Shown piece after piece: positions 5,500 through 48,871 of a stretch of DNA of 64,000 nt (position 1 is its first letter; each line of letters opens with the position of its first letter). This DNA comes from Squalus acanthias (lineage: Eukaryota): NCBI GenBank assembly GCA_030390025.1, contig CM059432.1, positions 57,228,001-57,292,000 on the forward strand, read 5' to 3'. The notes under the pieces were generated by a model that did no database searches, was not told where the DNA came from, and saw only the letters and a program-made list of their open reading frames with translations. Position numbers and translations under genes: made by a program.

Positions 5500-7260
5500 G
5501 AGGGCCGATTAGAGACCAAAAAGTTAACCTATGTGTGGAGGCGGAAGATGTGGGTATGGTTCTTAATGAATACTTTGCATCTGTCTTCACAAAAGAGAGG
5601 GACGATGCAGACATTGCAGTTAAGGAGGAGGAGTGTGAAATATTAGATGGAATAAACATAGAGAGAGAGGAAGTATTAAGAGGTTTAGCATTTTTGAAAG
5701 TTGATAATCACCAGGTCTGGATGAAATGTATCCCCAGGCTGTTAAGAGAGGCCAGGGAGGAAATAGCAGAGGCTCTGACCATCATTTTCCAGTCCTGTCT
5801 GGCTGCAGGCTTGGTGCCAGAGGACTGGAGGACTGCTAACATTGTGCCATTGTTTAAAAAGGGAGAAAGGGATAGATCGAGTAATGACAGGCCAGTCAGC
5901 CTAACCTTGTTGGTAGGAAAATTATTGGACAAAATTCTGAGGGACAGTATAAATCGTCATTTAGAACGTCATGGATTAATCAAGGACAGTCAGCATGGTT
6001 TTGTTAAGGGAAGGTCATGTCTGACTAACTTGATTGAATTTTTTGAGGAGGTAACAAGGAGGGTTGATGAGGGTAGTGCATTTGATGTAGTCTACATGGA
6101 TTTTAGCAAGACCTTTGACAAGGTCCCACATGGCAGGTTGGTCAAAAAAGTAAAAACCCATGGGATCCAAGGGAAAGTGGCAAGTTGGATCCAAAATTGG
6201 ATCAGTGGCAGGAAGCAAAGGGTCGATGGGTGTTTTTGTGACTGGAAGGCTGTTTCCAGTGGGGTTCCACAGGGCTCAGTACTAGGTCCCTTGCTTTTTG
6301 TGGTATATATCAATAATTTAGACTTCAGTGTAGGGGGCATGATTAAGAAGTTTGCAGATGATACAAAAATTGGCCATCTGTTTGATAGTGAGGAAGATAG
6401 CTGTAGACTACAGGAAGTTATCAATGGACTGGTCAGGTGGGCAGAAAAGTGGCAAATGAAATTCAATCCAGAGAAGTGTGAGGTAATGCATTTGGGGAGG
6501 GCTAACAAGGCAAGGGAATACACAATCAATGGCAGGATACTGAGAAGCCTAGAGGAACAGAGGGACTTTGGACTGCATGTCCACAGATCCCTGAAGGTAG
6601 CAGGACAGGTAGATAAGGTGGTTAAGAAGGCATACAGGATACTTTCCTTTGTTAGCCGAGACATAGAATATAAGAGCGGTGAGGTTATGTTAGAACTGTA
6701 TAAAACACTAGTTAGGCCACAGCTACAGTACTGCGTACAGTTCTGGTCACCACATTATAGGAAAAATGTGATTTCACTAGAGAGGTTACAGAGGAGCTTT
6801 ACGAGGATGTTGCCAGGACTGGAGAATTTTAGCTATGAGGGAAGATTGGATAGGCTGGGGTTGTTTTCCTTGGAACAGAGAAGGCTGAGGGGAGACTTAA
6901 TTGAGCTGTATAAAATTATGAGGGGCCTAGATAGAGTGGATAGGAAGCATCTATTTCCCTTAGCAGAGAGGTCAATAACCAAGGGGCATAGATTTAAAGT
7001 AATTGGTAGAAGGATTAGAGGGGAGTTGAGGAGACTTTTTTCACCCAGAGGGTGGTGGGGGTCTGGAACTCACTGCCTGAAAGGGTGGTAGAGGCAGAAA
7101 CCCTCATCACATTTAAGAAGCGCTTGAGGTGCCGCTAACTGTAAGACTACGGACCAAAAGCTGGAAAGTGGGATTAGGCTCTTTTTCGACTGGCGCAGAT
7201 ACGATGGGCTGAATGGCCTCCTTCTGTGCCATAAATTTCTATGATTCTATGATTCTATGA
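5500..7260 (+). mobile_element. 5'-truncated CR1 LINE with RT ORF (5535-7091)
   Basis: 518-aa ORF with QHGF, YMDFSKTFDKVPH, SGVPQGSVLGP and FADD motifs, plus (TTCTATGA)n tail. Confidence 0.95.
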
Positions 7261-8607: not shown

Positions 8608-11600
8608 TTTTTTATTCATTCATGGGATGTGGACGTCGCTGGTAAGGCCAGCATTTATTCCCCATCCCTAATTGCTCTTGAGACGGTGGTGATGAGCCGC
8701 CTTCTTGAACCTCTGCAGTCCGTGTGATGAAGGTACTCCCACAGTGCTGTTAGGGAGGGAGTTCAAGGATTTTGACCCAGCAACGATGAAGGAATGCGAT
8801 ATATTTCCAAGTCAGGATGGTGTGTGATTTGAAGAGAAACTTGGAGGTGGTGGTGTTCCCATGTGCCTGCTGCTCTTGTCCTTCTAGGTAGTAGAGGTCG
8901 CGGCTTTGGGAGGTGCTGTCGAAGACGCCTTGGCGAGTTGCTGCAGTGCATCTTGTAGATGGTACACACTGCAGCCCCGGTACGCCGGTGGTGAAGGGAG
9001 TGAATGTTTAAGGTGGTGGATGGAGTGCCAATCAAAGTGGGCTGATTTGTCCTAGATGGTGTTGAGCTTCTTGAGTGTTGTTGGAGCTGCACTCATCCAG
9101 GCAAGTGGAGAGTATTCCATCACACTCCTAACTTGTGCCTTTTAGATGCTGGAAAGGCTTTGGGGAGTCAGGAGGTGAGCCACTCGCCGCAGAATACCCA
9201 GCCTCTGACCTGCTCCTATAGCCACAGTATTTATGTGGCTGGTCCAGTTAAGTTTCTGGTCAATGGTGGGGGATTCTGCGATGGTAATGCCGTTGAATGT
9301 CAAGGGGCGGTGGTTCATCTCTCTCTTGTTGCAGATGGTCATTGCCTGGCACTTGTGTGGTACAAATGTTACTTGCCACTTATCAGCCCAAGCCTGAATG
9401 TTGCCAAGATCTTGCTGCTTGTGGGCATGGACTGTTTCACTATCTGAGGAGTTGCAAATGGAACTGACTACTGTGCAGTCATCAGCGAACATCCCCACTT
9501 CTGACCTTATGATGGAGGGATGGTCATTGATGAAGCAGCTGAAGATGGTTAGGCCTAGGACACTGCCCTGATGAACTCCTGCAGTGATGTCCTGGCGCTG
9601 AGAAGATTGGCCTCCATCAACCACCTTCCTTTGTGCTAGGTATGACTCTAGCCAGTGAAGAGTTCCCCCCCCGATTCCCATTGACTTCAGTTTTACTAGG
9701 GCTCCTTGATGCCACCCTCGGTCAAATGCTGCCTTGATGTCAAGGGCAGTCACTCTCACCTCACCTCTGAAATTCATCAATTTTGTCCATTTTTGAACCA
9801 AAGCTGTGATGAAGTCTGGAGCAGAGTGGTCCTGGCAGAACCCAAATTGAGCATCGGTGAGCAGTTGCTGCTTGATGGCACTGTCGATGACACCTTCCAT
9901 CACTTTGCTGATGTTTGAGAGTGGACTGATGGGGTGGTAATTGGCTGGATTGGATTTGCCCTGCTTTTTGTGGACAGGACATACCTGGGCAATCTTCCAC
10001 TTTGTAGGGTAGATGCCAGTCTTGTAGCTGTACTAGAACAGCTTGGCTAGAGGTGCGGCTAGTTCCGGAGCACGTCTTCAGCACTACAACTGGGATGTTG
10101 TCGGGGCTCATAGCCTTTGCTGTGTCCAGTGGCTCAGCTGTTTCTTGATATTAGGTGGAATGAATCGAATTGTCTGAAGACTGGCTTCTGTGATGGTGGG
10201 GACCTCAGGATGAGGCCGAGATAGATCATCCCCTTGGCACTTCTGCCTGAAGATTGTCACAAACACTTCAGCCTTGTCTTTTGCACTCACATGCTGGTGA
10301 TTGTTCATGGAGCCTCCTCCTCCCGTTAGTTGTTTAATTGTCCACCACCATTCATGACTGTTGTGGCAGAACTGCAGAGCTTTGATCTGAACCGTTGGTT
10401 GTGGGATCGCTTAGCTCTGTCTATAGCATGCTGCTTCCGCTGTTTAGAATGCATATAGTCAGTCCTGTGTTGTAGCTTCACCAGGTTGGCACCTCATTTT
10501 TAGGTACGCCTGGTGCTGCTCCTGGCATGCTCTTCTACACTCCTCATTGAACTAGGGTTGGTCCCCTTGCTTGATGGTAATGGTAGAGTGAGGGACATGC
10601 CGGGTTATGTGAGGTTACAGATTGTGGTGGAATACAATTCTGCTGCTGCTGATGGCTCACAGCGCTTCATGGATGCCCAGTTTTGAGCTGCTAGATCTGT
10701 TCTGAATCTATCCCATTTAGCACGGTGGTAGTGCCACACAACATGATGGAAGGTGTCCTGAGTGGGAAGACGAGACATCGTCTCCACAAGGACTGTGCGG
10801 TGGTCACTCCTACCAATACTGTCATGGACAGATGCATCTGCAACAGGTAGATTGGTGAGGACGAGGTCAAGTAGGTTTTTCCCTTGTGTTGGTTCTCTCA
10901 CCATCTGCCGCAGTCCAGTCTGGCACGTATGTCCTGCAGGACTCAGCCAGCTCGGTCAGTAGTGGTGCTACCGAGTCACTCTTGGTGATGGACATTGAAG
11001 TCCCCCACCCAGAGTACATTCCGTGCCCTTGCTGCCCTCAGTGCTTCTTCAAAGTAATGTTCAATATAGAGGAGTACTGATTCATCAGCTGAGGGAGCGC
11101 AGTAGGTGGTAATCAGCTGGAGGTTTCCATGCCCATGTTTGACCTGATGCCGTGAGACTTCATGGGGTCCAGAGTCATTGTTGAGGACTGCCAGAGCCAC
11201 TCCCTCCTGACTGTATACCACTGTGCCGCCACCTCTGGTGGGTCTGTCCTGCTGGTGGGACAGGACATACCCAGGGATATTGGTGGAGGAGTTTGGGACA
11301 TTGGCTGAAAGGTATGATTCTGAGAGTATGACTATGTCAGGCTGTAGCTCTCCCAATTTGACACAAGTCCCCAGATGTTAGTGAGGAGGACTTTGCAGGG
11401 TCGACTGGCCTTTTTCTAGGTCGATGCCGGGTGGTTTGTCTGGTTTTATTCTTATTATTGCAATGGTTTGATATAACTGAGTGGCTTGCTCGGCCATTTC
11501 AGAGGGCAATTAATAGTCAACCACATTGCTGTGGGTCTGGAGTCACATATAGGCCAGGTAAGGACAGCAGATTTCCTTCCCTAAAGGGCTTCAGTAAACC

Positions 11601-18280: not shown

Positions 18281-20525
18281 AGGACGGTTATATGCACTTA
18301 AATCAAGCGTAATGTTGCATTCTTGAGTGTGTGGGATCCTCCATGCACTGCTCTTTGCAAAGGCATTTCCTGTTGCTCTTGGTCCCAGCCTCCTCCTCTG
18401 TAAGAAAAACTTGCCTTTTCACTCAAATCAGTATTTGGTGTTAAGGTTAAAGAAAAACTGATACCACCTAGATTCTAATGCAGTGTTACCTAGCAACGAT
18501 ATCATTGAAGCCATTATAGGTTGACCTGAAGTAGGTTTCTCAGCCATTACATGTAATGTGATACAAAACTAACGTAAATCATTGAAAAACATTGCGGACA
18601 ACACAGTATTTTTAGACGCAGACTGAAACTGATACTCAATGTTTTCTTGTCAGCCGAGTCATTTCCTTAAATCCATAATCATGGTTCACAAACAATGACA
18701 CAATCTGTGTTTATTTAGAAATACAGTTGAAGCCAGTTAAATGGGGCACTGAGGTTGGAATAAATGTGTCCCAAATATCAGGTTATCCACCAGTGACCAA
18801 AACTCATCTGTACCGAGTAAAATAGTTCCTGAACTATTGAGGCTTTGCCTAAAAGTATGCAGGTGCTATCAAATCTTTTCATCCGTGTGTAATGTCTTTC
18901 CCTCAGCTTTCAAAATATAAGTAAAACAACCTGTTTTTGAAGCTAGCCTTCCAGTTTATTAATAGTACACTAGTTATTTAAAAATGAGTTAAAATTGGCT
19001 GCTGAGTATTACCTTTTGAAACCCCAATCACATTAACATCCAATGGACTGCTGGAAACAATAACTAGTAATTGTACACTTCAGCAGAGAGAGTCTCAATT
19101 ACAATCTATTCCATTTAACTGTACAGTTTTGTTTATTTTAAAGCCAAACCTTTTCCCTTATTCCTTTTTATGACACTTGCTTGTTCTAAGTGTATGATAA
19201 TATAAATAATATCACTTTATATATATAGCAATATGGGTTATGTCATTTTAAGTGTAGAATAATAAGGGTAATTTCACTTTAAGTGTATGGTAATAAGGAT
19301 TGTGTCATTTTAAGTATATGGTAATACAAGTAATGTGAGTTTTAATGTATGGTAAAAAGAGTTATGGGGAGCAAATTTTAACATCCCTTTCCAGACAGTT
19401 AAAATAGAGCAGGAGTATTACCCGCAGTCTTCTCGCCCAGATCATGCCAACTGCAATTTAAATTGCAGGTGCCAAGGGCACCACCCGAAGCCAGTGGGGT
19501 CCTTGTTTAAATATGCAGATCGGGTTCTGATGACGTCAATATTAACTCCAGGCGTGCATGGAGTAGCCCTCACAGCGTCCCCGCCAGACCAAACCTGCCA
19601 GGAACAGGAGTTGGGGTCAGAAGAGGCCCAGCAAGCTAGGCTTTAAAAAAAAATTATTTCCTTGTGGGCCAGGAAGGGCAGAAATGCTCCTCCGAGCCTC
19701 AAAATTAAACCATGAACCTTCCCCTCCCTCCACACCATCACCTCCGGACCCCTCCATGACCACTTACTTGATGCCAGAGACCGTTCCCTCTGGCCGTCTG
19801 AAATCCTGCTCCTGCCCACCTGCCAGCCTCCTCAGCATTCCCGCTGGGTTTGGACGAAAGACCGTCCTGCAGAATGTAAATGAGACCTGGTTGCTAAAGC
19901 TATCTAGGGCTCCATGCTATCACTCCTAGATGGGCCAGCTGCTTGCTGGGCTGCGTTCCTGCCTGGGAGTTAAAATCAACCCCATGGTTTTAAGTGTATA
20001 GTTTTCGTTCTGTACTTCCATTGCCACCATTGCAAGTATTCATTCATTATTTGTTCGTCTATCTTTTGCATTCTATCCAGTTTAGACACAAGCTTTGCTG
20101 TTATAGATACTTAAAAACATATTTATTTCAATGGTTATTGGCACCAGTTACAGGAGTGTCCTGTTTCATCTATAACAGATACTCTATAATTGGTGTTAAG
20201 CGACAATCATCTGTTGGATTTGGCAGGTCAGTTATAGTAACATTCTCCCACTCAGTCAGCTCCAGTAATGTAGATGTATCTTTATGTTAAAATTGCATAG
20301 AGGATACTAATCACCTCTCAGTGGATAACAAGACAAATGATCCAATCGAGCCATTAAGATGACACGATAAATTCAAGCAGTTTATATGTCATCTAAACCC
20401 CTCGACTAGATTGGTATCTTAAATTAATGGATGACTACCTAGTAGTATTTATAATATGAACATGATGCTGAATTAGTAATTGACAACAGGTGATCTGGCA
20501 TCATTAAAAGTTCCATGTGATAAGG

Positions 20526-22727
20526 TGTAATGGAATAAGCCATATTCCAAGAAATACATCATCCCATGAACAGATTTTGATATTATTAATACAAGACATA
20601 CTGAGTCTAAAAGTCTGGAAAGCCTTGGCAACACAGGCTGCAAACACAATACAGGCTTCTGAGATAAGATGAAGTGTTAACACAAAAGCTGTAAAACACC
20701 ACAAGCTTTGAAATGGGAGATGGTTGTAAACACAAAAACAATGCCCCTATTGAAGCAAACCATTGGCGCTTCCAGAAGGTCTGGAGTTTGGGAGAAACAC
20801 AATGGAATGACCCAAGTAAAGTGTTAAAATCTAACACTTCGAACAAGAAACACAGAACATTAAAACAACCATATGCCTTCATAAAGTAACATCAAATAAG
20901 ACAGGAAACACGATTAAATATGCAACCAATTGAGATAGCAAGAAAACAAGTAAACACCCTAAGAGAAGTGGTTTTGATTTACATATTGTAAACGATACCT
21001 ACAGAGAGGCTTCGAAGATATAATATCAATAGATGATACCAAGCAATTACATTGTGTTCAGTGTGCCAGTGCAGCCTTCGGTCGCCTGAGGAAGAGAGTG
21101 TTTGAAGACCAGGACCTCAAACCCGGCACTAAGCTCATGGTCTACAGAGCAGCAGTGATACCTGCCCTGCTGTATGCCTCAGAGACATGGACCATGTACA
21201 GCAGGCACCTCAAAGCACTGGAGAGGTACCACCAATGCTGCCTCCGCAAGATCCTGCAAATCCATTGGCAGGATAGGCGCACCAATGTCAGTGTTCTTGC
21301 TCAGGCCAACATCCCCAGCATCAAAGCTTTGACTACGCTCGATCAGCTCCGATGGACGGGTCACATTGTCTGCATGCCTAATACGAGACTCCCAAAACAA
21401 GCGCTCTACTCGGAGCTCCGGCACGGCAAGAGAGCCCCGGGTGGGCAGAGGAAATGCTTCAAGGACACCCTCAAAGCCTCCTTGAAAAAGTGTAACATCC
21501 CCACCGACACCTGGGAATCCCTGGCCCAAGACCGCACAAAGTGGAGGAGAAGCATCCGGGAAGGCGCCGAACACCTCGAGTCTCTTCGCCGGGAGCAAGT
21601 GGAAGCCAAGCGCAGGCAGTGCAAGGAGCGCACGTCAACCCAAGCACCCCACCCACCCGCCCCTTCAACCACCATCTGCCCCACCTGTGACAGAGACTAT
21701 AGGTCCTGCATTGGATTCATCAGTCACCTGCGAACTCATTTTTAATGTGTAAGCAAGTTATCCTCAGTTCCGAGGGACTACTTAAGAAGAAGAAGAAGAC
21801 ATTGTGTTTGTATTGAACTTGGAACACCACGGAGTCAAGACGTCTGGTTTACAAGCAGTTAAGTGATATTAAGAATTCAATAGAAAGACTTCCTAAGAAT
21901 GGCATCAAAAAGATAAATCTATAATAACCATTTTATGATAGTTTTTGAAACACCTAAAGGTAGAGACAGAATTCTAAAAGTTGACAGCTGAAATGACAGT
22001 AAGAATAGAAAATAATTCAATAGAGTATCACTAGAGACAATTAGCTTACATCAGTGGAAAACTTCAAAGAATATACCACTAAAAAAGAGTATAAAAATAA
22101 AAGCTTTTCAGATAGAGTGTCAGAAGTCGCCGGAAGGGCAAGCGTTTCTCAACTTCACAGGCATGCTCTGTAAGTTTTTAACTCTGAGTCTCGGGTAATC
22201 AAGGTGTTTGATTTTGGTGGATATTCTGGATTAAGAAATAAGTAGAAGTGTGGAAATGTAACGAAATTAAGATTTGAGAATAAGGATCTCTGATAAGAAA
22301 TGTAAGCTATTTGTATTTTGAACGGTTAAAGTTGCGATTGCCATACCAGCTGTTAACTAGATGTCGGTTCTTTAATAAATCTATATATTTTTAGAATAGT
22401 CTCAAGTAATATTTCTGTATCAATCTCGCGAACTCAATTTCGGTACACTCTTCAGTAAGGAGTTGCAGAATTCTGGGGGGGGTTTCCCGGACACTCATAA
22501 TATGCAGAGGGTTACAGGCTAGTTAAACTTGTTAAAAGTGCTATCCGGAGGATGGTAACATCTTCAGGCCATTCCTTTCCTTTAGGGAGAGATAGTCTGA
22601 ACCTTTAGACCCAATTAAGCGTCTCTAGGATTCGGCTACCGCTAACTTTAGTTGAAGGTGAACGTCTGGGGAATACGCCTGATCTGGGGTAGCCCAAAAA
22701 GGGCTAGGACTAGTAATTATCCCTTCA
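20526..22727 (+). repeat. 5' LTR (~1452 bp after removing the RTE insertion)
   Basis: Starts TGTAATGG, ends CCCTTCA, direct repeat of 27403-29748. TATAAAA at 22090-22096, AATAAA at 22374-22379. Confidence 0.95.
21059..21798 (+). mobile_element. 5'-truncated RTE-clade LINE inserted in the 5' LTR
   Basis: ORF 21098-21745 (LLYASETW...LPKQALYSEL, C-terminal CxxC...HLRTH), (AAG)n tail, 10-bp TSD ACATTGTGTT (21049-21058 / 21799-21808). Site is empty in the 3' LTR (28821-28830). Confidence 0.92.
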
Positions 22728-22729
22728 GT

Positions 22730-22747
22730 TGGCGCCCAACGTGTGTG
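22730..22747 (+). promoter_or_regulatory. Primer binding site, tRNA-Lys1,2 type
   Basis: TGGCGCCCAACGTG gives 14 contiguous matches to TGGCGCCCAACGTGGGGC, 2 nt after the LTR end. This is the PBS used by foamy viruses. Confidence 0.9.
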
Positions 22748-23022
22748 TTAATGAGTTGATACAGAACCTATACTTATATTTATATCTATATCCATCTTGT
22801 AGATTGTTAAGTATAGAAGGAGTGTTTACTGACAGTGGTACTAAGACCCAGATTTAAGTTTCTGGAGATGACAAGTCCCTGATCAGGCCTTGTAGAACTT
22901 AAATCAGAACTCCCTCAACATACCATTGAGGTCTAGAAATTTCTTATAAAGTTCATATTAAACCCTAACCGAGGTTAGGTCCTGACGAAATTAAACCCTA
23001 ACCGAGGTTAGGTCCTGAAGAA

Positions 23023-24600
23023 ATGACAAACCCTGTCGGAATTGGCCAAGTCTTTTTATTAGAAAATTTAAACGATTGCTTTATTAGGGGAAATAATCCT
23101 ATCCCTGTAGCTCCACAAAACCAAGTGATAATTTTTGAAATAGAAGGCTTTGATGCCGAAGGAGCCGTTAGAACTCATGGCACGATTAATGTTGATCCCC
23201 AGAACCAGGGGATACAGAATATCCAGTGGGATAATCAAACAAATACTCCAGAGCCAATAAATTCCTTAATGATAAAGTGCACACCTGCACAATTGGGAGG
23301 CCTAATGAACGGTGCCCAACAAGGTGGTGGCAACCATGGCCGAATAGCAGGACCTGGAGCAGCCTATGCTCCTGGGGGCCATGGATTCCGGTTAAGGTGG
23401 CAAACTCATGAAGAAATAAATGCCAACAATCTTCGAGAAAATGATAGACAGCTTAGAATTCATTATAATCAATGCCGACAGGCACTAGCTCACTCTTATC
23501 TAAATGCTGGAGGCGCAATGATTAATGGTCCAGTAAACCGACCCCAGCAGCCACAAATTGCACCCCTAGGTCAAGTAAACCTGAGCTCTATCTACACGAT
23601 GTGTGGTAAACCAGGAAACACCAGCCAGGAAAAAACCTGCTGGATTCTAACTAACCTTGATAAATTGGAAACCTGTTGCCAAGATTGGAAATCCCAACAC
23701 CTGAGGCAACTACTGCAAATGATACTAAGTTCAGACTTAATTCCCCCATTAAACCAGTGTAACAACTGGGTTCAAATATACGCTTATGTTCTCACAGCAA
23801 CTCAGGGAGGGCGTGTAATGGGTTCCATCAAGGAAATACTCACTAATACAACCACAACTAAAGGGCTGGTAGCTGCCTACAGAATAGGCAAGGTACTTAC
23901 ACAGGATAACTGGGATATTGTCCACGGTTGCCTGGCCAATCAATACCAAAATACAGCCCTCAAACTTGCTTGTGAGGGTGCTCTAAACGATTATCGAGAT
24001 AACCAACAAAGATGGGATAATGTCAATCGCATTATCCAATTAAACCATGACCTCTTAGGTCTACCTCAAACTAAACCTATAATGAGATCAGAAACTAGGG
24101 ATAAAAAAACCGGAGAAGGTACCTTTGGTACTCAGAAAGAAGGACTGTATAGACCCAAGTCTCAAGTCCACCCTGCCTAGACACAAACTCATGGCTCGGG
24201 ACCCCCAAGGGGATATTCCAGAAGGTTTGCACCCCAAACTCGCCCACAATACGAGACAGATTTCTCCCCAGAAAGATGGGATAGACGAGGGGCTAGACCT
24301 CGAAAGGAAAGCGAAGGACAGTGGACTCCCTATGGGGACAGCTTTTACACTGGCCAAAGTTATCAGCGAGCCATGGGAGGATATCGAGAAAACCGATATG
24401 GGGATCAAAAAGATTCCCGGCAGAACCAATGTCCACCTCAACAGGAGGATCGTCCAGATAATAAACAGTCCGACTAAACCCCTCAGGGATCTGGAAAACA
24501 TGAAACCCCCAAGAGGGAGGAACAAAAATCAGTTAAAATAATTAAAGACAAAGAAGCAAATAAAACTCAGGATTCTGAGGATGAACAATCCCAGGATTGA
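23023..24600 (+). pseudogene. gag: Foamy-type gag, 525 codons with two in-frame stops (TAG 24178-24180, TAA 24475-24477)
   Basis: GLVAAYRIGKVLTQDNWDIVHGCL resembles PFV GVATAYTLGMMLSGQNYQLVSGII, and HDLLGL resembles the YxxLGL motif. The frame continues past the stop into a Gly/Arg-rich tail (GPPRGYSRR, WDRRGARPR) with no CCHC knuckle. Confidence 0.88.
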
Positions 24601-27023
24601 AGGCCTGGCACGCAGCCAGGGCCTCTTGAATTCACCTATGCCTTGGCAACCTTGCCCACAAACACACAAGTGAAGGCCCTGTTTGATACGAGAGCTGATT
24701 ACACTGTAATACATCCTGCAATTATAAAAACTAAGTGGACAGGTTTGGGAAGTCCAATTTGTAAAAGACCATTAGGGGGATTCACACAAGACAAAACCAA
24801 GATAATTAATTTTTACAAAATACCTATTACTATATATGGAATCACGGTGACCCTAGATGTAGGACTGGTACCACAATTGGCCTGTTCCCTCATTATAGGA
24901 CAAATAAACATGAAACATTACCTTAAAATCTCAACCAAACCTGTACAAGCATCCACATGGATGACAGGGAAAAACATGTTCGAACATAGCTTGATCGAAC
25001 TTGCCTAGAGGGGGGAGGCAAAGACCTCCTCGAGCAACTCATAAAAAATACTATCCTTATCTACAACGCCATCCAAATCAATGTGGAAAGATAGAGCATC
25101 TCCCCATCATGGAGGATGATGATACGGAGGAGGGAATCAGACAAATACCTATGAGACCGCTTATAGAATACCATCAAGTTATTTACTGTGATGGAACGTC
25201 AATGACAATTAAAAAAGGGACATTCCAACAATTTTCAGCTGGGATGGGGATAGTAGTAGGGACTTTGAGATTCCTATTCTTTTTATCCAGAAGAATTTCT
25301 GTCTAAACCCCTTGGCCATAAGACAGCGCAATATGCTGAAGCCGCAGCATTATGGTATGCTTTAGAGAAAGAAGACCTTATTAAACCCACATTGTGGGAA
25401 GACATTCTCCGTTCGAGGATGGAGAAACAGAATTGTCAGGTGATTCATGTAAACGGGCATACCACTGGGACAGTACACTCAAAAGGAAACAGCCTTGCTG
25501 ACGAACAAGCGAAACATTCAGTCTGCATGATACCCCCTCGAGAGGGGCCTGCCAATGTTAGTGTAATCACTAAGGCAGAACGGGCAGCTAATCAGGATGA
25601 GGAACTGATTCAGCTATTAGACCCGATAACAGAGAATCCACCAGAATATCCACCAAAGTACTTTTACTCGGAAACCCCTATGGGTATTGTGCTAGTTAAG
25701 TTGCCCAAGGGAAAATGAGAAGTACCCCCGAGCCGCAAATGAGAACAGCTTGTAAAAGAAGCTCACAAGGGCATAAGCTAAGTACATTGTAGTGCCAGAA
25801 CAACATTCTGCAAATTGACCCTCTTATATTGGTGGCCAGGCATGCTTAGAGCCTGTAAAACATACGTAGCAAATTGTGAGCCATGCTATTCGACCAATAA
25901 GTCATCACTAAATTAAGCCACCACCATTGGCTCCTGTGAAAGCTGATGAGCCAATGGGAAAATTCTTTATTGACTTTATTAGACCACTTTCCCCATCTTT
26001 GGGATATAGACATGTTCTCGTTTGTGTGGATGGATGCTCTTCCTTCTGCTGGCTGGTCCCCACAAAAACTGTTTCGGAAAACGCACTCGCCAGGGCTATT
26101 TCTGATATAATTACTGTAGCTGGTGCACCCAAAATCTTACACTCCGTTAAAGGCGGAGCCTTTGTATCCAAGGTCTTCAAAGCCTACTGTGAACAAAGGG
26201 GGATTGGGTTAGAGCACAGCATGCCACATCATCCGCAATCAGCGGGGCTGGTGGAATGTAAAAATCGGGGAGTAATAAAGTTATTGGTCAAACTGTTGAG
26301 AATCAGGGGGAATAAGTGGACCGCCATCATTCCGGAAGTACAGCTATCACTCAATAATGTGCCCACATCTGCATCAGGGACAGTGTCCCCTAAAACTCCA
26401 TATTATCTGATGTATGGGGTTGAGATGAATACACCGCTTACCCATAGTTCTTTTATTGCCTCTACACACTTTGAGTCCTTGACCCGACAGCGACAGTTAG
26501 AAAAAAAAAGTAGTAACAGAGGAGATTCATCGAATTGATCAGAGGATAAGGGAAGCAAATAGGCAGAAAAAATTGACAAATAAAGCATGGCAACCCATAG
26601 TAGGAGAATGGGTACAGGAAAAGAAGTTCGAGCAGAAATCTGGTTTAAGACCGAAGTGGAAAAAAACCTGTTCAAATACATTCTGTTATTAACGAAAGAA
26701 CAGTTCAAATACATATTAACCAGCCGAATGGCAAGCATATTTTTAAAACTGTCTCCATAGACAATATCAAGAGATGTCCTGCAGGATACCGAAAAAGAGG
26801 AATAATACAAGGTGCAGTTGTACACTGTTTTTTAAGACCCAGCTTGGAGCACGACATAGGAAATGGGTGCGATCGAATTACTGACGATGGGAAGTCAGAA
26901 GGTGTCGTTGGCTCTTCTACACATTGCTTGGATTTGCGAAAAGCAACAACCGAAACAAGGAAAGATCAACGAGTTACTTTAACGAAGGAGGAAGACATCG
27001 TGGATGAAGAAGGAATCAACTGA
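24581..27023 (+). pseudogene. pol: Foamy-type pol remnant: protease, RNase H, integrase; RT polymerase domain deleted; frameshifts and stops
   Basis: PR: ALFDTRAD (DTGA mutated). Linker: YYPYLQRHPNQCG. RNase H: IYCDG, AGMGIV, PLGHKTAQYAE, HSKGNSLAD. IN: YPPKYFY, YWWPGM..CEPC, KFFIDFIRPLSPSLGY, HPQSAGLVE, WQPIVGEWVQEK, LRPKW, TVSIDNIK. Second catalytic Asp of IN is Val (HSVKG). Confidence 0.92.
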
Positions 27024-27392
27024 GTGCCTGGCAAGGCCTTTACGAATACAAGCATCTGTACACATGCCGGATCGAAGGAACAGCGTGTCAAGCTTCAACT
27101 AGTTTCAAATGACATCTCCTTGAATCGTATGAATAACTCACCTCTACAGAATGTACATCTGCCGATTGGACATTCTAAGTACATGTTGTTTCGCTCATTG
27201 CATGACTATATACTTATCATCCTTTTAAATTGTGTTCAATTTAAAATAAGGCAAAACATTGTCCTAGGATGATTTAAAAGGAATTTTCATGTCGCACATG
27301 ATTGTGCATCTCCTGAACTTAATATGCTATTGTAACCGTATGAGTATCATTGACCAAACTCTGCCCTGATGTTATAAGCTCATCTTTTGGTC

Positions 27393-27402
27393 AAGAGGTG
27401 GG
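27393..27402 (+). promoter_or_regulatory. Polypurine tract
   Basis: AAGAGGTGGG immediately before the 3' LTR TG. Confidence 0.7.
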
Positions 27403-29748
27403 TGTAATGGAATAAGCCATATTCCAAGAAATACATCATCCTATGAACAGATTTTGATATTATTAATGCAAGACGTATTGGGGGAAAAATTCAGTTGGTT
27501 GCGCCTCCCGTTAGCGCCTTAAGAGGGCGCTAATGGGGCGCAAAGCAGCTAGCGCCCAGGTGCGGCGATGTTTGTGCCGCTCGCGAAATTAACTAGACAT
27601 TTTGCGGTGGCGCTAAACACTACCGCCACGATCTCCTGCGCCGGCAGATCATGACGTCAGTCGAGTGCGCAATGCCCCGGTATCGCCCCGGAGTGGATAT
27701 TGAGTGGCGCCCCCTGCCTTACCGCCTGCCGCTAGCAACGACAGGTTGAGGGGAGCGTTTTGCAGTCAGGAAGGGACTGGGGGAGCGCTATTTAAAGGCG
27801 ACTGCTTCCTGCCTTTTATTGTTGGTGACATTTTTGAACCACGCATTCTGAAAGAGAGAGAGAGAGACTTCTGGAGAGATTCAACGCTGTGTGAAGGAGT
27901 TTTGGGTACTGAGCAGCACTTTGCAGGTTCATTTTGATTTGCCCTTCCTTGTATCGATTTAGAAGAGACTGTGGGGGCTGCACTCTGAGCTCTTTCCCTG
28001 GTACTCTCCATTGTTCTTTCCAGCAGATTTGATGTACAGGTCTCTCCAGGCCGAGATTCAATGCTGCAATGAGCAGGATGTGGATGGAAAGCAAGATCAA
28101 CCCTCCCCTTTAAGAACTGGCCCACGCCATTGTGTGTGTGTTCCATTGCTGACTGACATCACATGAGCTTCGCCAGTGCTCTGAGGTAGCGCCTCGCTTC
28201 TCGGCCTTTGCGCCTTAAGACAGGTGTGAAGCACCTGATTTAGCGCTCCAATCAACTCCAGGGGCGATAAAAGTTAAGTTTGCAGTCGGAGGCGATAATT
28301 AGCGCCAGGCGCTAATCTTTGTGCCCGGCTGATAATTGCGCCCCAAATGGGACGATACTGAATTTCTCCCCCATTGAGTTTAAAAGTCTGGAAAGCCTTG
28401 GCGACACAGGCTGCAAACACAATACAGGCTTCTGAGATAAGATGAAGTGTTAACACAAAAGCTGTAAAACACCACAAGCTTTGAAATGGGAGATGGTTGT
28501 AAACACAAAAACAATGCCCCTATTGAAGCAAACCATTGGCGCTTCCAGAAGGTCTGGAGTTTGGGAGAAATACAATGGAATGACCCAAGTAAAATGTTAA
28601 AATCTAACACTTCGAACAAGAAACACAGAACATTAAAACAACCATATGCCTTCATAAAGTAACATCAAATAAGACAGGAAACACGATTAAATATGCAACC
28701 AATTGAGATAGCAAGAAAACAAATAAACACCCTAAGAGAAGTGGTTTTGATTACATATTGTAAAAGATACCTACAGAGAGGCTTTGAAGATATAATATCA
28801 ATAGATGACACCAAGCAATTACATTGCGTTTGTATTGAACTTGGAACATCACGGAGTCACGTTGTCTGGCTTACAAGCAGTTAAGTGATATTAAGAATTC
28901 AAAAGAAAGACATCCTAAGAATGGCATCAAAAAGATAAATCTGTAATAACCATTTTATGATAGTTTTTAAAACACCTAAAGGTAGAGACAGAATTCTAAA
29001 AGTTGGCAGCTGAAATGACAGTAAGAATAGAAAATAATTCAATAGAGTATCACTAGAGACAATTAGCTTACATCAGTAGAAAACTTCAAAGAATATACCA
29101 CTAAAAAAGAGTATAAAAATAAGAGCTTTTCAGATAGAGAGTCAGAAGTCACTGGAAGGGCAAGCGTTTCTCAACTTCACAGGCACGCTCTGTAAGTTTT
29201 TAACTCTGAGTCTCGGGTAATCAAGGTGTTTGATTTTGGTGGATATTCTGGATTAAGAAATAAGTAGAAGTGTGGAAATGTAACGAAATTAAGATTTGAG
29301 AATAAGGATCGCTGATAAGAAATGTAAGCTATTTGTATTTTGAACGGTTAAAGGTGCGATTGCCATACCAGCTGTTAACTAGATGTCGGTTCTTTAATAA
29401 ATCTATATATTTTTAGAATAGTCTCAAGTAATATTTCTGTATCAATCTCGCAAACTCAATTTCTGTACACTCTTCAGTAAGGAGTTGCAGAATTCTGGGG
29501 GGGTTTTCCGGACCCTCATAACATCCGGAAGGCTACAGTCTAGTTAAACTTGTTAAAAGTGCTATCCGGAGGATGGTAACATCTTCAGGCCGTTCCTTTC
29601 CTTTAGGGAGAGATAGTCTGAACCTTTAGATCCAATTAAGCGTCTCTAGAATTCGGCTACCGCTAACTTTAGTTGAAGGTGAACGTCTGGGGAATACGCC
29701 TGATCTGGGGTAGCCCAAAAAGGGCTAGGACTTGTAGTTATCCCTTCA
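27403..29748 (+). repeat. 3' LTR (~1450 bp after removing the MITE)
   Basis: Direct repeat of the 5' LTR. TATAAAA at 29112-29118, AATAAA at 29396-29401. Confidence 0.95.
27480..28372. mobile_element. PIF/Harbinger-type MITE inserted in the 3' LTR
   Basis: 16-bp TIRs GGGGGA(A/G)AAATTCAGT with 1 mismatch, 3-bp TSD ATT, absent from the 5' LTR, left end similar to 41619-42314. Confidence 0.9.
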
Positions 29749-29963
29749 AAGCAATCTCACAATACTCCACTGAACAAAATGATTTCTCTGCTGCTGAGCC
29801 ATGAGAGGGAGAATATTGCCCAGAAAGCAGCAGGCCAGGGTTGGATAGAGTGGATGGTTGAATATTCTGGTGTCTTTGGGGATCAAGGAGATTTTATGCA
29901 GAACTTTCCTTGAAAAGATTAAATAGGTCAGGTAGAGTCCATGACAGGGCAGATTATACATGA

Positions 29964-30965
29964 TTTTTTTTTATTCGTTTATGGGATCAGGGCGTCGCTG
30001 GCAATGCCAGCATTTATTGCCCATCCCTAGTTGCCCTTGAGAAGGTGGTGGTGAGCCGCCATCTTGAACCGCTGCAGTCCGTGTGGTGATGGTACTCCCA
30101 CAGTGCTGTTAGGTAGGGAGTTCCAGGATTTTGACCCAGCGACGATGAAGGATCGGCGATATACTTCTAAGTCAGGATGGTGTGTGACTTGGAGGGGAAT
30201 TTGTAGCTAGTGGTGTTCCCATGCGCCTGCTGCCCTTGTCCTTCTAGGTGGAAGAGTTCGCGGGTTTGGGAGGTGCTGCTGAAGAAGTCTTGGTGAGTTG
30301 CTGCAGTGCATCTTATAGATGGCACACACTGCAGCCACGGTACGCCGGTGGTGGACGGAGTGAATGTTTAAGGTGGTGAACGGGGTGCCAATCAAGCGGG
30401 CTGCTTTGTCCTGGATGGTGTCGAGCTTCTTGAGTGTTGTTGGAGCTGCACTCATCCAGGCAAGTGGAGAGTATTCCATCATACTCCTTACTTGTGCCTT
30501 GTAGATGGTGGAAAGGCTTTGGGGAGTCAGGAGGTGAGACACTCACTGCAGAATACCCAGCCTCTGACCCGCTCTTGTTGCCACAGTGTTTATGTGGCTG
30601 GTCCAGTTAAGTTTCTGGTTAATGGTGACCTCCAGGATGTTGATAGTGGGGGATTCAGCGATGGTAATACCATTGAATGTCAAGGGGAGGTGGTTAGACT
30701 CTCGCTTGTTGGACATAGTCATTGCCTGGCACTTCTGTGGTGCGAATGTTACCTGCCACTTATCAGCCCAAGCCTGAACGTTGTCCAGGTCATGTTGCAT
30801 GCGGGCATGGACTGCTTCATTATCTGTGGAGTTGCGAATGGCGCTGAACACTGTGCAGTCATCAGCGAAGATCCTCATTTCTGACCTTATGTTGGAGGGA
30901 AGGTCATTGATGAAGCAGCTGAAGATGGTTGGGCCTAGGACACTGCCCTGAGGAACTCCTGCAGC
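29964..30965 (-). mobile_element. LINE family B 3' fragment (RT C-terminus)
   Basis: FADDCTVF and YKAQVRS peptides, T-rich tail at 29964. Confidence 0.9.
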
Positions 30966-31139
30966 AAGGAGCAGGCTTGATCAGCAAATCTGTTTGCATG
31001 CTTTCATTCTTATGAAAATGCTATTCATGGCACATGCATCAAAAGATGTGATTTAGGGCCACAAAGTGTTCTGGGTTATTTCCGATAATAGACTGTTTAA
31101 TATTACCTAAGAATTATACAAATGCTATATAAATTAAGC

Positions 31140-35087: not shown

Positions 35088-35638
35088 TAGCTATTACTAA
35101 ACACAGATATAGAGAAAAGGAGGGGTGCTGTAAACCAGAAACCGTTGTATTAAAATATTTCTTATTTTACATTTATGACTGGGATGTGATTTGAAGAAAA
35201 GTATTATAAGAACTTTGTTTTACTGCAATATGAAACATAGACAGCAGAATTATATAACGTTATGAAATTGGATGAAACAAAACTTTGGAACATTTGGGAA
35301 CGATAACACACAATAGTTTTCCTTAATAAAAAGGCATATTAATTAAAGGAATGGATTAAAGCATTATCCTTTCACCAAAATGACCAGGGTCTTAATCCAA
35401 TAATAAAGGCAGAATGAACATGATCATATCCTCCTCAAAAGTGAGAAGTCGCACAACACCAGGTTATAGTCCAACAGTTTTATTTGAAATCACAAGCTTT
35501 CGGAGCTGCTGCCCCTTCGTCAGGTGAAGTGAAGGAATACGAATCGGCAAAGCATATATAGACAGGGAACAATGCCTGTGTAGCGTACAATGTCAGACGA
35601 CTACATTTAATCTTTCTGACTGCCTTTCATCACACCTC

Positions 35639-37498
35639 ACCCGAGCACAACGCAACGCCATCCACGCTCTCAAGACCAACAGCAACATTGTCATCAAACC
35701 AGCGGACAAAGGAGGAGCCATCGTCATACAGAACAGAATGGACTATTGCAAAGAAGCATACCGACAACTGGACAACCTGGAACACTACAGACAGTTACCC
35801 GCAGATTCGACCAAAGAACACACCCGCCAACTCAATAGACTGATCAAGACCTTCGATCCAGACCTTCAAAGCATCCTACGCGCTCTCATCCCACGTACTC
35901 CCCGCGTGGGAGACTTCTACTGCCTCCCAAAGATACACAAGGCCAACACACCCGGACGTCCTATCGTATCAGGCAACGGAACCCTGTGTGAGAACCTCTC
36001 TGGATACGTCGAGGGCATCCTGAAACCCATCGTACAGGGAACCCCCAGCTTCTGCCGCGACACCACAGACTTCTTACAGAAACTCAGCACCCATGGACCA
36101 GTTGAACCAGGAACACTCCTCGCCACGATGGACGTATCGGCACTCTACACCAGTATCCCCCACAATGACGGCATCGCTGCGACAGCCTCAGTACTCAACA
36201 CCAACAACAGCCAATCTCCAGACACCATCCTACAACTCATCCGCTTCATCCTTGACCACAATGTCTTCACCTTCGACAACCAGTTTTTTACCCAAACACA
36301 CGGAACAGCCATGGGGACCAAATTCGCACCCCAATACGCCAACATCTTCATGCACAAGTTCGAGCAAGACTTCTTCGCTGCACAGGACCTCCAGCCAACG
36401 CTGTACACCAGATACATCGACGACATTTTCTTCCTTTGGACCCACGGCGAAGTATCACTGAAAAGACTACACGATAACATCAACAAGTTCCATCCCACCA
36501 TCAAACTCACCATGGACTACTCCTCAGAATCGGTTTCATTCCTGGACACACGAATCTCCATCAAAGACGGACACCTCAGCACTTCACTCTACCGCAAGCC
36601 CACGGACAACCTCACGATGCTCCACTTCTCCAGCTTCCACCCTAACCACGTTAAAGAAGCCATCCCCTATGGACAAGCCCTGCGAATACACAGGATCTGC
36701 TCAGACGAGGCGGAACGCGATGGACACCTACGGACGCTGAAAGACGCCCTCGTAAGAACGGGATATGACGCTCGACTCATCGATCGACAGTTCTGACGGG
36801 CCACAGCGAAAAATCGCATAGACCTCCTCAGAAGGCGAACACGGGACACAACCAACAGGGTACCCTACGTCGTCCAGTACTTCCCCGGAGCGGAGAAACT
36901 ACGCCACGTTCTTCGCAGCCTTCAACATGTCATCGATGACGACGAACACCTTGCTAAGGCCATCCCCACGCCTCCACTACTCGCCCTCAAACAGCCGCCT
37001 AACCTCAAAAGTACCATCGTTCGCAGCAAATTACACAGCTTTCAGGATAACAGCGACCACGACACCACATAACCCTGCCATGGCAACCTCTGCAAGACAT
37101 GCCAGATCATCAACACAGATACCATCATCACATGTGAGGACACTACCCACCAGATACATGGTACATACTCATGTGACTCGGCCAACGTTGTCTACCTCAT
37201 ACGTTGCAGGAAAGGATGCACCGGAGCATGGTACATCGGCGAGACCATGCAGACACTGAGACAACGTATGAACGGACACCGCGCAACAATCGCCAGGCAG
37301 GATTGTTACCTCCCAGTCGGGGAACACTTCAGCAGTCAAGGACATTCAGCCTTGGATCTGCGGGTAAGCGTTCTCCAAGGCGGCCTTCGAGACACACGAC
37401 AACGCAAAATCATCGAGCAGAAACTGATAGCCAAGTTCCGCACCCATGAGGATGGCCTCAACCGGGATCTTGGGTTCATGTCACGCTACATGACGTAG
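35639..37498 (+). pseudogene. Penelope RT + GIY-YIG endonuclease ORF with two in-frame stops
   Basis: ORFs 35738-36796 and 37247-37498 are in the same frame, with stops at 36794-36796 and ~37070. Confidence 0.88.
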
Positions 37499-45387: not shown

Positions 45388-47326
45388 ATAGAATCATAGA
45401 ATCATAGAATGGTTACAGCATGGAAGAAGGCCATTCGGCCCATTGAGCCCGTGCCGGCTCTCTGCAAGAGCACTTCAGCTGGTCCCATTCCCCCGCCCTT
45501 TCCCCGTAGCCCAGCAAGATTTTTCCTTCAGATACTTATCCAATTCCCTTTTGAAAGCCACGATTGAATCTGCCTCCACCACCCTTTCAGGCAGTGCATT
45601 CCAGATCCTAACCACTCACTACGTAAAAAAGTTTTCCTCATGTTGCCTTTGGTTCTTCTGCGAATCACCTTAAATCTGTGTCCTCTGGTTCTCGACCCTT
45701 CTGCCAGTGGGAACAGTTTTTCTCTATCTACTCTGTCCAGACCCCTCATGATTTTGAACACCTCTATCAAATCTCCTCTCAACCTTCTCTGCTCTAAGGA
45801 GAACAACCCCAGCTTTTCCAGTCTATCCATGTATCTGAAGTCCCTCATCCCCGGAATCATTCTCATAAATCTTTTCTGCATCCTCTCTAAGGCCTTCACA
45901 TCCATCCTAAAGTGTGGTGCCCAGAATTGGACACAATAGTCCAGTTGAGGCCGAACCAGTGTTTTATAAAGGTTCATCATAACTTCCTTGCTTGTGTACT
46001 CTATGCTTCTATTTATGAACATGATGCGGAGATGCCGGTGTTGGACTGGGGTGGACAAAATTGAGAGGTCGCACAACACCAGGTTATAGTCCAACAGTTT
46101 TATTTGAAATCACAAGCTTTCGGAGCTATCGATTTGCTCCTTCCTCAGGTGAGGAAGGAGCAAATCGATAGCTCCGAAAGCTTGTGATTTCAAATAAAAC
46201 TGTTGGACTATAACCTGGTGTTGTGCGACCTCTCTATTTATGAAGCCCAGGATCCCGTATGCTTTTTTAACCGCTTTCTCAACCTGCCTTGCCACCTTCA
46301 ACGATTTGTGCACATGTACTCCCAGGTCTCTCTGTTCATGCATCCCCTTTAGAATTGTACCCTTTAGTTTATATTGCCTCTCCTTGTTCTTCCTACCAAA
46401 ATGTATCACTTTGCACTTTTCTGCATTAAATTTCATCTGCCACGTGTCTGCCCATTCCACCAGCCTGTCTATGTCCTCTTGAAGTCTATCACTATCCTCC
46501 TTGCTGTTCACTATACTTCCAAGTTTTGTGTCATCCGCATATTTTGAAATTGTGCCCTGTACACCCAAGTCCAAGACATTAATATATATCAAGAAAAGCA
46601 GTGCTCCTAGTACTGACCCCTGGGGAACACCACTGTATACCTTCCTCCAGTCCAATAAACAACCGTTCTCTGTTTCCTGTCACTGAGCCAATTTTGTATC
46701 CATGCTTCCACTGTTCCATTTATTCTATGGGCTTCAACTTTGCTGGCAAGCCTATTATGTGGCACTTTATCAAATGCCTTTTGGAAGTCCATGCACACCA
46801 CATCAACCGCATTACCCTCATCAACCCTCTCTGTTACCTCATCAAAAACTCAATCAAGTTAGTTAAACACGATTTGCCTTTAACAAATCCGTGCTGGCTT
46901 CTCTTAATTAATCCACACTTGTCCAAGTGACTGTTAATTTTGTCCCGGATTATCGTTTCGAAAAGCTTCCCCACCACCGAGGTTAAACTGACTGGCCTGT
47001 AGTTACTGAATTTATCCTTACCCTTTTTTGAATAAGGCTATAACATATGCAATTCTCCAGTCCTCTGGCACCACCCCCGTATCTAAGGAGGATTGGAAGA
47101 TTATGGCCAGTACCTCCACAATTTCCACCTTTACTTCCCTCAGCATCCTAGGATGCATCCCATCCAGTCCTGGTGACTTATCTACTTTAAGTACAGCCAG
47201 CCTTTCTAGTACCTCCTCTTTATCAATTTTTATCCCATCCAGTATCTCAACTACCTCTCCTTTCACTATGACTTTAGCAGCATCTTCTTCCTTGGTAAAG
47301 ACAGATGCAAAGTACTCATTTAGTAC
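45388..47326 (-). mobile_element. 5'-truncated CR1 LINE, apparently inserted in a MITE (45336-47581) and itself interrupted by a mini-Penelope
   Basis: RT motifs DFQKAFDKVPH, GVPQGSVLG and YADD, plus (CATAGAAT)n tail. Confidence 0.92.
46020..46232 (-). mobile_element. Fold-back mini-Penelope with hammerhead motif
   Basis: Arms 46063-46147 / 46150-46234, pLTR tail on the left, TSD TCTATTTATGAA (46008-46019 / 46233-46244). Confidence 0.9.
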
Positions 47327-48871
47327 ATTGGCGAAATTTATGCTCGTTCAGAACAGGTGTAAATGTAGGAAACCCGTGTTCTCTGGTCTTTTGCACAGGT
47401 TAATGAGTTAAGTTGGATCTTGGCAGATGTAACTCAGGAGTGGCGCAAATGATTGAGGAAATTTGCACATAGTGATGTAAAACTGGGGTAAATCAGTTAC
47501 GTGCAAATTTCCAAGGTAAAACATGGTGCAACTCTGCTCTATGCCATAGTTACACCAAAACTTTCCAGAAAATTCCAGGCCAGTATGTTTTTTGGTGGTG
47601 GTTAACGGAAGAATCTTGCAAGGTTGTGTATAGATGTGAAGGATATGCATCAAATATTTAACTGTATTTATGTCTTCATTCAATGAATTGTTAATACAGT
47701 GATTTTACTGTGTTTTCCCCCCTCTGGCACAACCACGCTTTGCTCTTCAGTCAGAAGAGTGGGACAGGCTGACCTGCTGACACTGCAGTGGGTCCTGACA
47801 ATGGTTGTTCTTATGCTTTTATTAGAATTTGTATAACCTTTGTTCACATTGGAGGATCCAATTGTAAACTTTAATTGCAGCAAAACATTTCCCATTTTTT
47901 CTCCATTGTTTAGTATTACCAAACTAGGCAAAGCTGAGAAATAAATTGATTTCTAATTGTGTTTTTTACAAGTCCACAGGACACTAGATATGGATAATAT
48001 GTTGCTACGTTTAACCTGGAGATAACAACACATTTTAGAAGCCAAACTATTTTTTGTTTCGTGTTTTCTGTCACATATGTCTTTGAATTGCTGACTGAAT
48101 GAAAGGGTAACAAGGTGCTAGAGGCTATTTTTATCTAGTTGTTGTTGAAATCCCAGTTCAAATCTTGGCAATCTAGTTATGTTTTTATTAGGATTGAAGA
48201 GTACATATTTAGAAGCTGAGTGGTATTGTGGATTGAAACCTCTGGAGACATGGGTCCAAGTGCATTCCAGTAATGAACATTGCCTTTACCAATGTCACAT
48301 GTTAAATGAGTTTGGTTGATCTTGGTCAAGTCCCCAGTCTCCAGTCCCCCAATCAACTTGAATCCACAGTATAATAATTCTCAGCTGTTTTCTTCTTAAA
48401 ACATGTCAATTTAGATTTGTGAGACCTTGGGTTCATTTTGTAGCAGAATGAATTGCTATGCTTGCTTACATTTATAGTAACTCCATGCTTTTAGTTACCA
48501 TTGTTGTTTGTTGTCAGCATTCAAACTTGATGTGAAAGACTAAAAAATTAAAGGTTTTTGTTATATCATGCTTTAATGAAAATATATCTGAGAATTTTTC
48601 ATTCCTATTTGATGGTTATGTGTACACTTTAAACATTTCAAAGGCAAGTACGTTGCAGTGCGGAGAGAGCACAACACCTGTGTCAGGTGTCAAAGGTCAA
48701 CAAGAAATAATGAGGAATAATATAATCTTCAAAACTGAATATTTTCCAGTAAGGAAGGGCTGGCACTTATTGTCCAGGGTATTTTGTAAAGTTTTATGAT
48801 TAAGAACACAAACACCCAAAGACTCTGGGTGTGCAATTTGACTAATGAATGTGTTTTGTTTTGCTTTGCAG

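Follow-up and report, generated by a model that had tools for sequence, protein, structure and literature searches.

The window considered here is a 64,000-nt stretch of the genome of Squalus acanthias (GenBank assembly GCA_030390025.1, contig CM059432.1, forward-strand positions 57,228,001 to 57,292,000). At 20526-29748, on the + strand, it harbours an endogenous retroviral element in which two long terminal repeats (LTRs) surround remnants of foamy-type gag and pol genes (Table 1). It is what remains of a foamy-type retrovirus, a defunct copy with internal deletions that derives from a high-copy family and itself lacks both reverse transcriptase (RT) and env. Judged by first-look candidates, this family is large and almost wholly env-less. 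The reading favoured here, with a probability of about three in four, is that a foamy virus became an intracellular retrotransposon, probably with a Gag-Pol made by readthrough of a stop codon, and that the window copy was mobilised in trans. A foamy endogenous retrovirus (ERV) in a shark is not new in itself. Of remaining interest are the env-less expansion with its non-autonomous tiers and the non-canonical gag-pol layout.

Structure of the element

The original prediction for this locus described two TG..CA LTRs of about 1.45 kb. These align over 1,450 columns with 44 mismatches (Kimura two-parameter (K2P) distance 0.031, 3.1% apart) when the one later insertion in each, of ~750 nt in the 5' LTR and ~900 nt in the 3' LTR, is set aside. 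The predicted Lys1,2 primer binding site (PBS) comes after 'CA GT', and 15 of its 18 bases are those of the PBS in 14 of 15 foamy records, the first 14 being exact; the 15th record showed no match to the PBS of the element. The polypurine tract (PPT) was also recognised correctly, as a purine tract ending in GGG directly precedes the TG of the 3' LTR. Such a GGG-TG junction is reported for foamy viruses and fish foamy-like ERVs (PMC5210030).

Target-site duplications were sampled at 30 LTR loci, 25 of which could be parsed at both ends, and 20 of these are solo LTRs. The solo LTRs show a perfect 4-bp duplication (15 loci), a duplication matching at three of four positions (four loci) or a 5-bp duplication (one locus), and the 4-bp duplications of the family are of the integrase type. 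Since the family makes 4-bp duplications, the flanks AAGG and AAGC of the window element represent, as proposed, a 4-bp duplication with one change. The family therefore combines a Lys1,2 PBS, a GGG-TG junction, a 4-bp duplication and a long LTR, all of which are foamy traits. The LTR divergence corresponds to an age of 71 million years (Myr) at a shark substitution rate of 2.2e-10 (PMC4422223) or 31 Myr at 0.5e-9 (PMC10699275), both rates being assumed. The preserved architecture that had been claimed holds for the LTRs, PBS and PPT; the deletion of RT and env had gone unstated, and the element is not a well-preserved provirus. An Rfam search of positions 19000-31000 gave no match.

Table 1. 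Features of the Squalus acanthias element and of its host gene in the window.
Feature	Position	Strand	Basis or remark
Target-site duplication, 5' copy AAGG	20522-20525	.	3' copy AAGC at 29749-29752; family solo LTRs show 4-bp duplications
5' LTR, 1,450 nt of LTR plus one LINE insertion	20526-22727	+	LTR pair alignment
Later insertion in 5' LTR: LINE 3' fragment, GAA tail, 10-bp duplication	21059-21798	+	
PBS, Lys1,2 type as in foamy viruses	22730-22747	+	Match to foamy records; tRNA label from PMC3185757
gag: foamy-type capsid domain, Arg/Gly-rich tail, no Cys-His box; two internal stops	23023-24600	+	
Single TGA between gag and in-frame protease; candidate readthrough stop followed by predicted 9-bp hairpin	24598-24600	+	
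Protease and first RT residues, degenerate: catalytic motif altered, frame breaks	24601-25091	+	Spuma_A9PTase match in sibling copy
RT-deletion junction, ~1.27 kb gone, 9-nt microhomology, common to many copies	25092-25100	+	
RNase H remnant, internal deletion of ~110 nt (junction 25390-25393)	25101-25560	+	
Integrase with N-terminal part, core and C-terminal SH3 part, interrupted by stops and frameshifts; altered catalytic triad	25561-26831	+	
env-deletion junction, ~3.2 kb gone relative to env-bearing sibling	27052-27115	+	
PPT adjoining 3' LTR, GGG/TG junction	27393-27402	+	
3' LTR, 1,450 nt of LTR plus one DNA-transposon insertion	27403-29748	+	
Later insertion in 3' LTR: 889-nt non-autonomous DNA transposon, terminal inverted repeats, 3-bp duplication	27480-28368	.	
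Host KCNK9, second coding exon	48871-49713	+	Exon 1 ~10 kb upstream of the window

Foamy virus ancestry

The foamy-type ancestry of the element is supported by phylogenetic trees and by foamy-specific Pfam domains in the Gag, protease and Env of its family. The window Gag matches the Pfam family Gag_FV_central with 54.9 bits (cut-off 30), its LLGL aligns with the foamy LGL motif, and no Cys-His (CCHC) box was found in it, which bears out the foamy-like Gag of the original prediction. A model of this Gag matches the capsid of prototype foamy virus (PFV) with an E-value of 1.2e-7, a figure that is not independent because the alignment was built with foamy Gags, and its N-terminal domain match is weak (E 0.23). 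A profile-free search with the window Gag gave five matches, including a named simian foamy Gag and two proteins of the salamander Pleurodeles. The best Gag match (P0121), a 48-aa repeat match in a protein of 2,574 aa, was discounted as spurious. Word-index searches of proteins, made with the window Gag and with integrase (IN; searched against longer proteins), returned nothing at E <= 0.001, which is weak evidence of absence, and no relative was found in the viral contigs searched.

For the window IN core, the best match in the PDB is PFV IN with an E-value of 8e-46, compared to 6.5e-7 for the IN of human immunodeficiency virus (HIV). The RNase H and IN motifs that had been named as foamy all occur in one foamy Pol (L076), and some of them in the four others checked. 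The spumavirus protease family Spuma_A9PTase gave no match in the degenerate window copy and 26.3 bits (cut-off 21) in L061, an RT-bearing sibling with 90% DNA identity whose own gag and protease are broken. L061 scores 477 bits against a foamy protease-RT structure, versus 120 against murine leukaemia virus (MLV) and 115 against Ty3 RT. Its Pol aligns with 15 foamy Pols at 36.9-39.6% identity over 1,062-1,134 aa (655-720 bits), the next best score being 209 bits. Furthermore, the env-bearing siblings match Foamy_virus_ENV above the cut-off.

In the RT tree, the shark and foamy sequences group with a support of 100/99, and in the whole-Pol tree the shark family joins the foamy viruses (100/100) as sister to ten mammalian foamy viruses. 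The window's own IN also falls with the foamy viruses in a tree (SH-like approximate likelihood ratio test (SH-aLRT) 85). Gypsy-like, gamma-like and epsilon-like rows fall apart from the shark and foamy group, in agreement with the foamy lineage originally proposed. In the RT tree the shark rows form a long branch among the mammalian foamy viruses, a position that is weakly supported (80/87). The sister position in the whole-Pol tree is preferred over this nesting, mammalian monophyly itself being unstarred (82/97).

Motif scans of viral contigs supplied the reference genomes of these trees. Pfam checks of four references identified two as foamy and one as gamma-type, and gave only a zinc knuckle for the other. 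One reference is tied to a named Gag, and the remaining group labels are presumptive, being based on similarity and layout. The trees hold no rows from ERV-L or from teleost, coelacanth, amphibian or published shark elements, so that the family is placed relative to mammalian foamy viruses. Eight viral and several metagenome loci without a usable RT frame were left out of the comparison. A metagenome scan yielded 56 loci, one of which was used in two trees. As their readable RT frames score at most 209 bits against the shark Pol, none of them is foamy-like.

It is hardly credible that the element is an ERV-L-like class III or Ty3/Gypsy element merely resembling foamy viruses. Such a reading would accommodate the env loss, the high copy number and the in-frame TGA, which are ERV-L/XtERV-S-like, and the trees against which it is judged hold no ERV-L reference. 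However, it is largely refuted by the three foamy-specific Pfam families above cut-off (Gag central, A9 protease and Env), and over its full length Pol can be aligned with foamy Pol at 37-40% identity. The PBS and PPT junction are likewise foamy-type, and the Gypsy-like, gamma-like and epsilon-like rows lie elsewhere. Neither the sibling Pol nor the window frames that were scanned matched any dUTPase family.

No tas/bel2 frame was found in the decayed copies, and in one env-bearing copy ~550 nt lie between env and the PPT. The longest stop-free frames of the env-PPT interval are 48, 97 and 144 aa in three decayed copies, and those of 14 U3 regions are 49-74 aa. The 144-aa frame after env has no Pfam match.

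Family structure and shared deletions

The family consists of three structural tiers, namely env-bearing, env-less and RT-less copies. A genome-wide LTR search, which the original prediction named as a check, gave 4,753 candidate loci in the 3.7-Gb genome, next to 505 IN, 201 gag, 162 RT and 8 env candidates; these are first-look numbers obtained with 800-928-nt queries from different copies, not copy numbers. All eight env candidates were scored and represent seven places. The env-bearing loci belong to the same family, with RTs 88-94% identical at the protein level and 83-91% identity to the window in pol. The 39 other scored RT matches are 97-99% identical to the RT of one env-less copy. 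Env was directly seen to be missing only in those copies whose flank extended as far as the junction. In a DNA tree of IN from 38 loci, rooted on an env-bearing copy, the env-bearing copies are basal, the 35 others, which form the env-less group, are nested inside them (94/79), and all 18 RNase H-deleted copies are nested within this group (92/77).

Compared to its siblings, the window copy lacks ~1.27 kb of RT, ~110 nt of RNase H and ~3.2 kb of env. Among the 30 nearest IN loci, window included, the RT junction is present in 15, the RNase H junction in 18 and the env junction in 22, and 14 of the 15 RT-deleted copies have a substitution at one catalytic residue of IN; these counts are inflated by the ranking of the loci, which followed their likeness to the window. 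The RT junction is spanned by 40 of 40 scored matches on many contigs, which puts this RT deletion at 40 or more places. Because the deletion junctions are common to many copies, the deletions are inherited and not a product of local decay. The features of a non-autonomous element are found together, with essential enzymes missing, cis signals kept and the same deletion multiplied.

Host segmental duplication as the main source of the copy number and the shared deletions is very improbable. It could draw on five near-identical truncated copies (L032, L033, L034, L039 and L046) lying close together at 98.96-99.64 Mb of contig C1 (G000), within ~0.7 Mb, a cluster that probably did arise by segmental duplication. 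Family-wide, however, the flanks of the solo LTRs differ, with their own perfect 4-bp duplication in 15 of 20, and copies with the RT junction are located on at least 12 large contigs.

Two further observations concern the deletions. A second non-autonomous lineage (L055, L058, L063 and L064) has lost most of gag through RT and kept the leader and RNase H-IN, and a joint of 23135 to 25189 in the contigs of another organism (run X3) matches it. In L053, L055, L061 and L064, a 33-36-nt remnant from mid-env is located at the env junction, which suggests that env was lost in two steps.

Layout of the gag-pol junction

In the env-less copies, gag and protease lie in one frame with a TGA between them. 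This layout was read in 18 env-less copies covering the codon at 24598. The stop site is TGA in 17 of them, the protease motif is in frame with the stop codon in all 18, and in 17 no methionine lies between the two. The gag tail is in frame with the 24598 codon in 14 of 17 assessable copies. The window and an env-bearing sibling are collinear over 23980-24392, so that this frame of gag is no artefact of the window. By comparison, pol is in the +1 frame in 13 of 13 mammalian foamy records, and an in-frame TAG is found in six gamma-like records and in L096. According to a review, foamy viruses differ from all other retroviruses in having no Gag-Pol fusion (PMC3185757).

The layout makes it probable that the Pol of the env-less family is a Gag-Pol fusion formed by readthrough of the single TGA and not the product of a separate spliced mRNA. 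The converse would be a canonical foamy Pol translated from a spliced mRNA, with the TGA as a plain gag stop and the start codon in an upstream exon or at an unrecognised ATG. This is unlikely, even though a separate spliced pol mRNA is a foamy hallmark (PMC3185757) and a +1-frame ATG is present 17 nt ahead of the stop. In 17 of 18 copies this ATG does not share the frame of the protease, and in 15 of 18 a stop closes its frame. In the window, no AG with a pyrimidine-rich upstream tract (>= 13/20) was found from 120 nt before the stop to the protease motif. Furthermore, the distance from the stop to the catalytic residue is 29 codons, resembling the 27 of gamma-type records, and the class III element XtERV-S likewise has a TGA dividing gag from pol within a single frame (PMC8278194).

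A genome-wide pattern that fixes the spacing at the gag-pol junction gave at least 69 exact matches, and 66 of those listed belong to the family by eye. None of the 100 pattern matches listed lies near an env locus, a further 151 being outside the listing. Among the one-mismatch matches listed on contigs C1-C3, at least six family copies have a sense codon at the stop site, and three of them share a further variant. These three may form a sub-lineage with a fully fused gag-pol frame.

Proposed history of the family

Intracellular retrotransposition, mobilisation in trans, the order of the losses and readthrough are steps that we infer from the surviving copies. A foamy-type retrovirus would have entered the shark germ line, and one lineage would then have lost env and continued copying inside cells. 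RT-bearing env-less masters may have given rise to shorter derivatives, including one without RT and part of RNase H. Such derivatives, in which the LTRs, PBS, leader, 3' pol and PPT were retained, would have been copied many times by proteins supplied in trans. The window copy would be one such passenger, which landed in a KCNK9 intron and subsequently received insertions of two further mobile elements.

Several properties of foamy viruses are relevant to this scheme. Foamy Gag has no membrane-targeting signal, budding requires Env, and reverse transcription occurs in the producer cell (PMC3185757). Loss of env would therefore trap capsids in germ cells and favour re-integration. Env-deficient PFV constructs do retrotranspose in cells, a process that the same source calls artificial, and the packaging and cis-acting sequences of PFV are in the leader and 3' pol (PMC3185757). 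In the shark family, IN is retained more than gag or RT, which fits trans-mobilised derivatives, although it is only a hint.

Alternatively, the family may have spread by repeated infection, with an env-bearing helper packaging the env-less and RT-less RNAs and no true intracellular retrotransposition. Candidate helpers exist, since the family has env-bearing members with closely related RTs, and foamy vectors need only the cis elements that these copies keep (PMC3185757). This history is nevertheless improbable, as env was found at seven places versus hundreds of IN candidates and the bulk of the scored RT matches are nearly identical to the RT of an env-less copy. The env-bearing copies are also basal and more divergent from the window.

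Other results weigh against intracellular spread with readthrough, besides the first-look nature of the candidate numbers, the ranking of the IN loci and the probable duplication cluster on C1. The gag-pol layout was read in env-less copies only, the junction being deleted in two env-bearing copies. The hairpin predicted downstream of the stop lacks significance, with 14 of 200 shuffled sequences folding equally well (z -1.6). In one RT-bearing copy, Gag and protease are in different frames; this difference was traced to a 17-nt deletion that neither the window nor an env-bearing sibling has. The nesting branches of the IN tree are unstarred, and its root was set on the env-bearing copy by assumption. 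Only five of the loci were inspected over 8 kb and only three over 9.5 kb. Finally, the non-synonymous/synonymous substitution rate ratio (dN/dS, transition-corrected) in the IN of RT-deleted copies is 0.67 (0.47-0.96), below the value of 1 expected of pure passengers. Across the family, transition-corrected dN/dS values in IN (0.45-0.74) do not distinguish one tier from another.

Foamy viruses are described as rarely becoming endogenous (PMC10581153). With thousands of LTR candidates and env at few places, the shark family would be a natural case of foamy intracellular retrotransposition. The gag-TGA-protease layout also bears on when Gag-independent Pol, the most distinctive foamy trait, arose. 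A tentative extension, with the odds somewhat against it, is that the deepest foamy lineage made Gag-Pol by TGA readthrough, a state that XtERV-S also shows, that spliced Gag-independent Pol came later, and that an env-less foamy 'superspreader', of a type not found in the literature searched, arose in sharks. If true, the natural deletion series of the family would map foamy packaging signals.

Comparison with known elements

The shark family resembles mammalian foamy viruses in its Gag capsid domain, A9 protease, Pol, Env, Lys PBS, long LTR, GGG-TG junction, 4-bp duplication and lack of a Cys-His box. It is set apart from them by its endogenous, high-copy and almost wholly env-less state, and by having gag and protease in one frame across a TGA, whereas mammalian foamy viruses have a +1 pol with its own ATG. 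Foamy ERVs have reportedly been found in sharks and rays, basal to other vertebrate foamy viruses, and the sister position obtained here fits this placement. An endogenous foamy virus of cartilaginous fish was published by Wang, Chen and Cui (2023, J Virol 97:e0181622, PMC9972966), and the window family may be a member of it. The novelty of a foamy lineage from cartilaginous fish is thus weaker than originally stated.

Two other foamy-like ERVs of cartilaginous fish are ERV-Spuma.0-Sca of the catshark, which is described as grouping with ray-finned fish elements and having no detected Gag domain (PMC10699275), and CmiFLERV of the elephant shark, for which only pol is described (PMC5512871). 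The shark family differs from these published descriptions in that its Gag and Env match foamy-specific Pfam families. Gag_spuma and Foamy_virus_ENV domains are shared with endogenous foamy viruses of amphibians and the coelacanth (bioRxiv 10.1101/2020.12.18.423569; PMC5512871). The amphibian families are reported with 18, 64 and 131 copies and with gag-pol-env plus accessory genes, in contrast to the ~500 IN and ~4,700 LTR candidates and the seven env places of the shark family.

ERV-L resembles the shark family in its env-less spread within a genome, and XtERV-S in the single gag-pol frame split by a TGA (PMC8278194). Both have a non-foamy Gag and a dUTPase, whereas the shark family has a foamy Gag and foamy Env ancestry. 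Therefore, the env-less lifestyle appears convergent with that of ERV-L. Loss of env has been linked to proliferation (Magiorkinis 2012). In the literature searched, which did not cover the text of Wang, Chen and Cui 2023, no env-less, high-copy or non-autonomous endogenous foamy family was found, nor readthrough in one.

Host, insertion site and later insertions

The host is supported as a shark by KCNK9, the gene that had been named for this purpose, as the exon 2 found in the window shares 98% identity with a shark protein cluster, compared to 91% with the next match. With exon 1 located ~10 kb upstream of the window, the element falls within a KCNK9 intron and has the sense orientation. 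The read sets of seven organisms have 13-49% of sampled words of the 3' interior of the element in common with it. In a comparison of four organisms' read sets, A, B and D carry the family, and H has almost nothing of it. In organism A, a flank contig enters the LTR by 28 nt with no differences, which is less than the 31 letters required by the bridging rule. In organisms B and D, agreement with the flank contig ends at 20524, after which 244 and 241 unlike letters follow, respectively; from this break we infer an empty site at the position of the element.

The LINE fragment in the 5' LTR is presumably RTE-type, and the 889-nt transposon in the 3' LTR is taken to be Harbinger-like. The same transposon occupies the identical LTR position in the independent copies L007, L017, L018, L023, L025 and L030, in both orientations, which points to a preferred target site within the LTR. 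A second insertion hot spot is located near 21049-21058, where the LTRs of L013 and L026 carry different insertions of ~760 nt with inverted-repeat ends almost at the position of the window LINE. Elsewhere in the window, tandem repeats occupy 1-414 and 19184-19369 (units of ~41-42 nt and 31 nt). Remnants labelled by eye as LINE-like and Penelope-like reverse transcriptases are located at 5502-7091, 9142-10032, 35528-37498 and 45528-46679.

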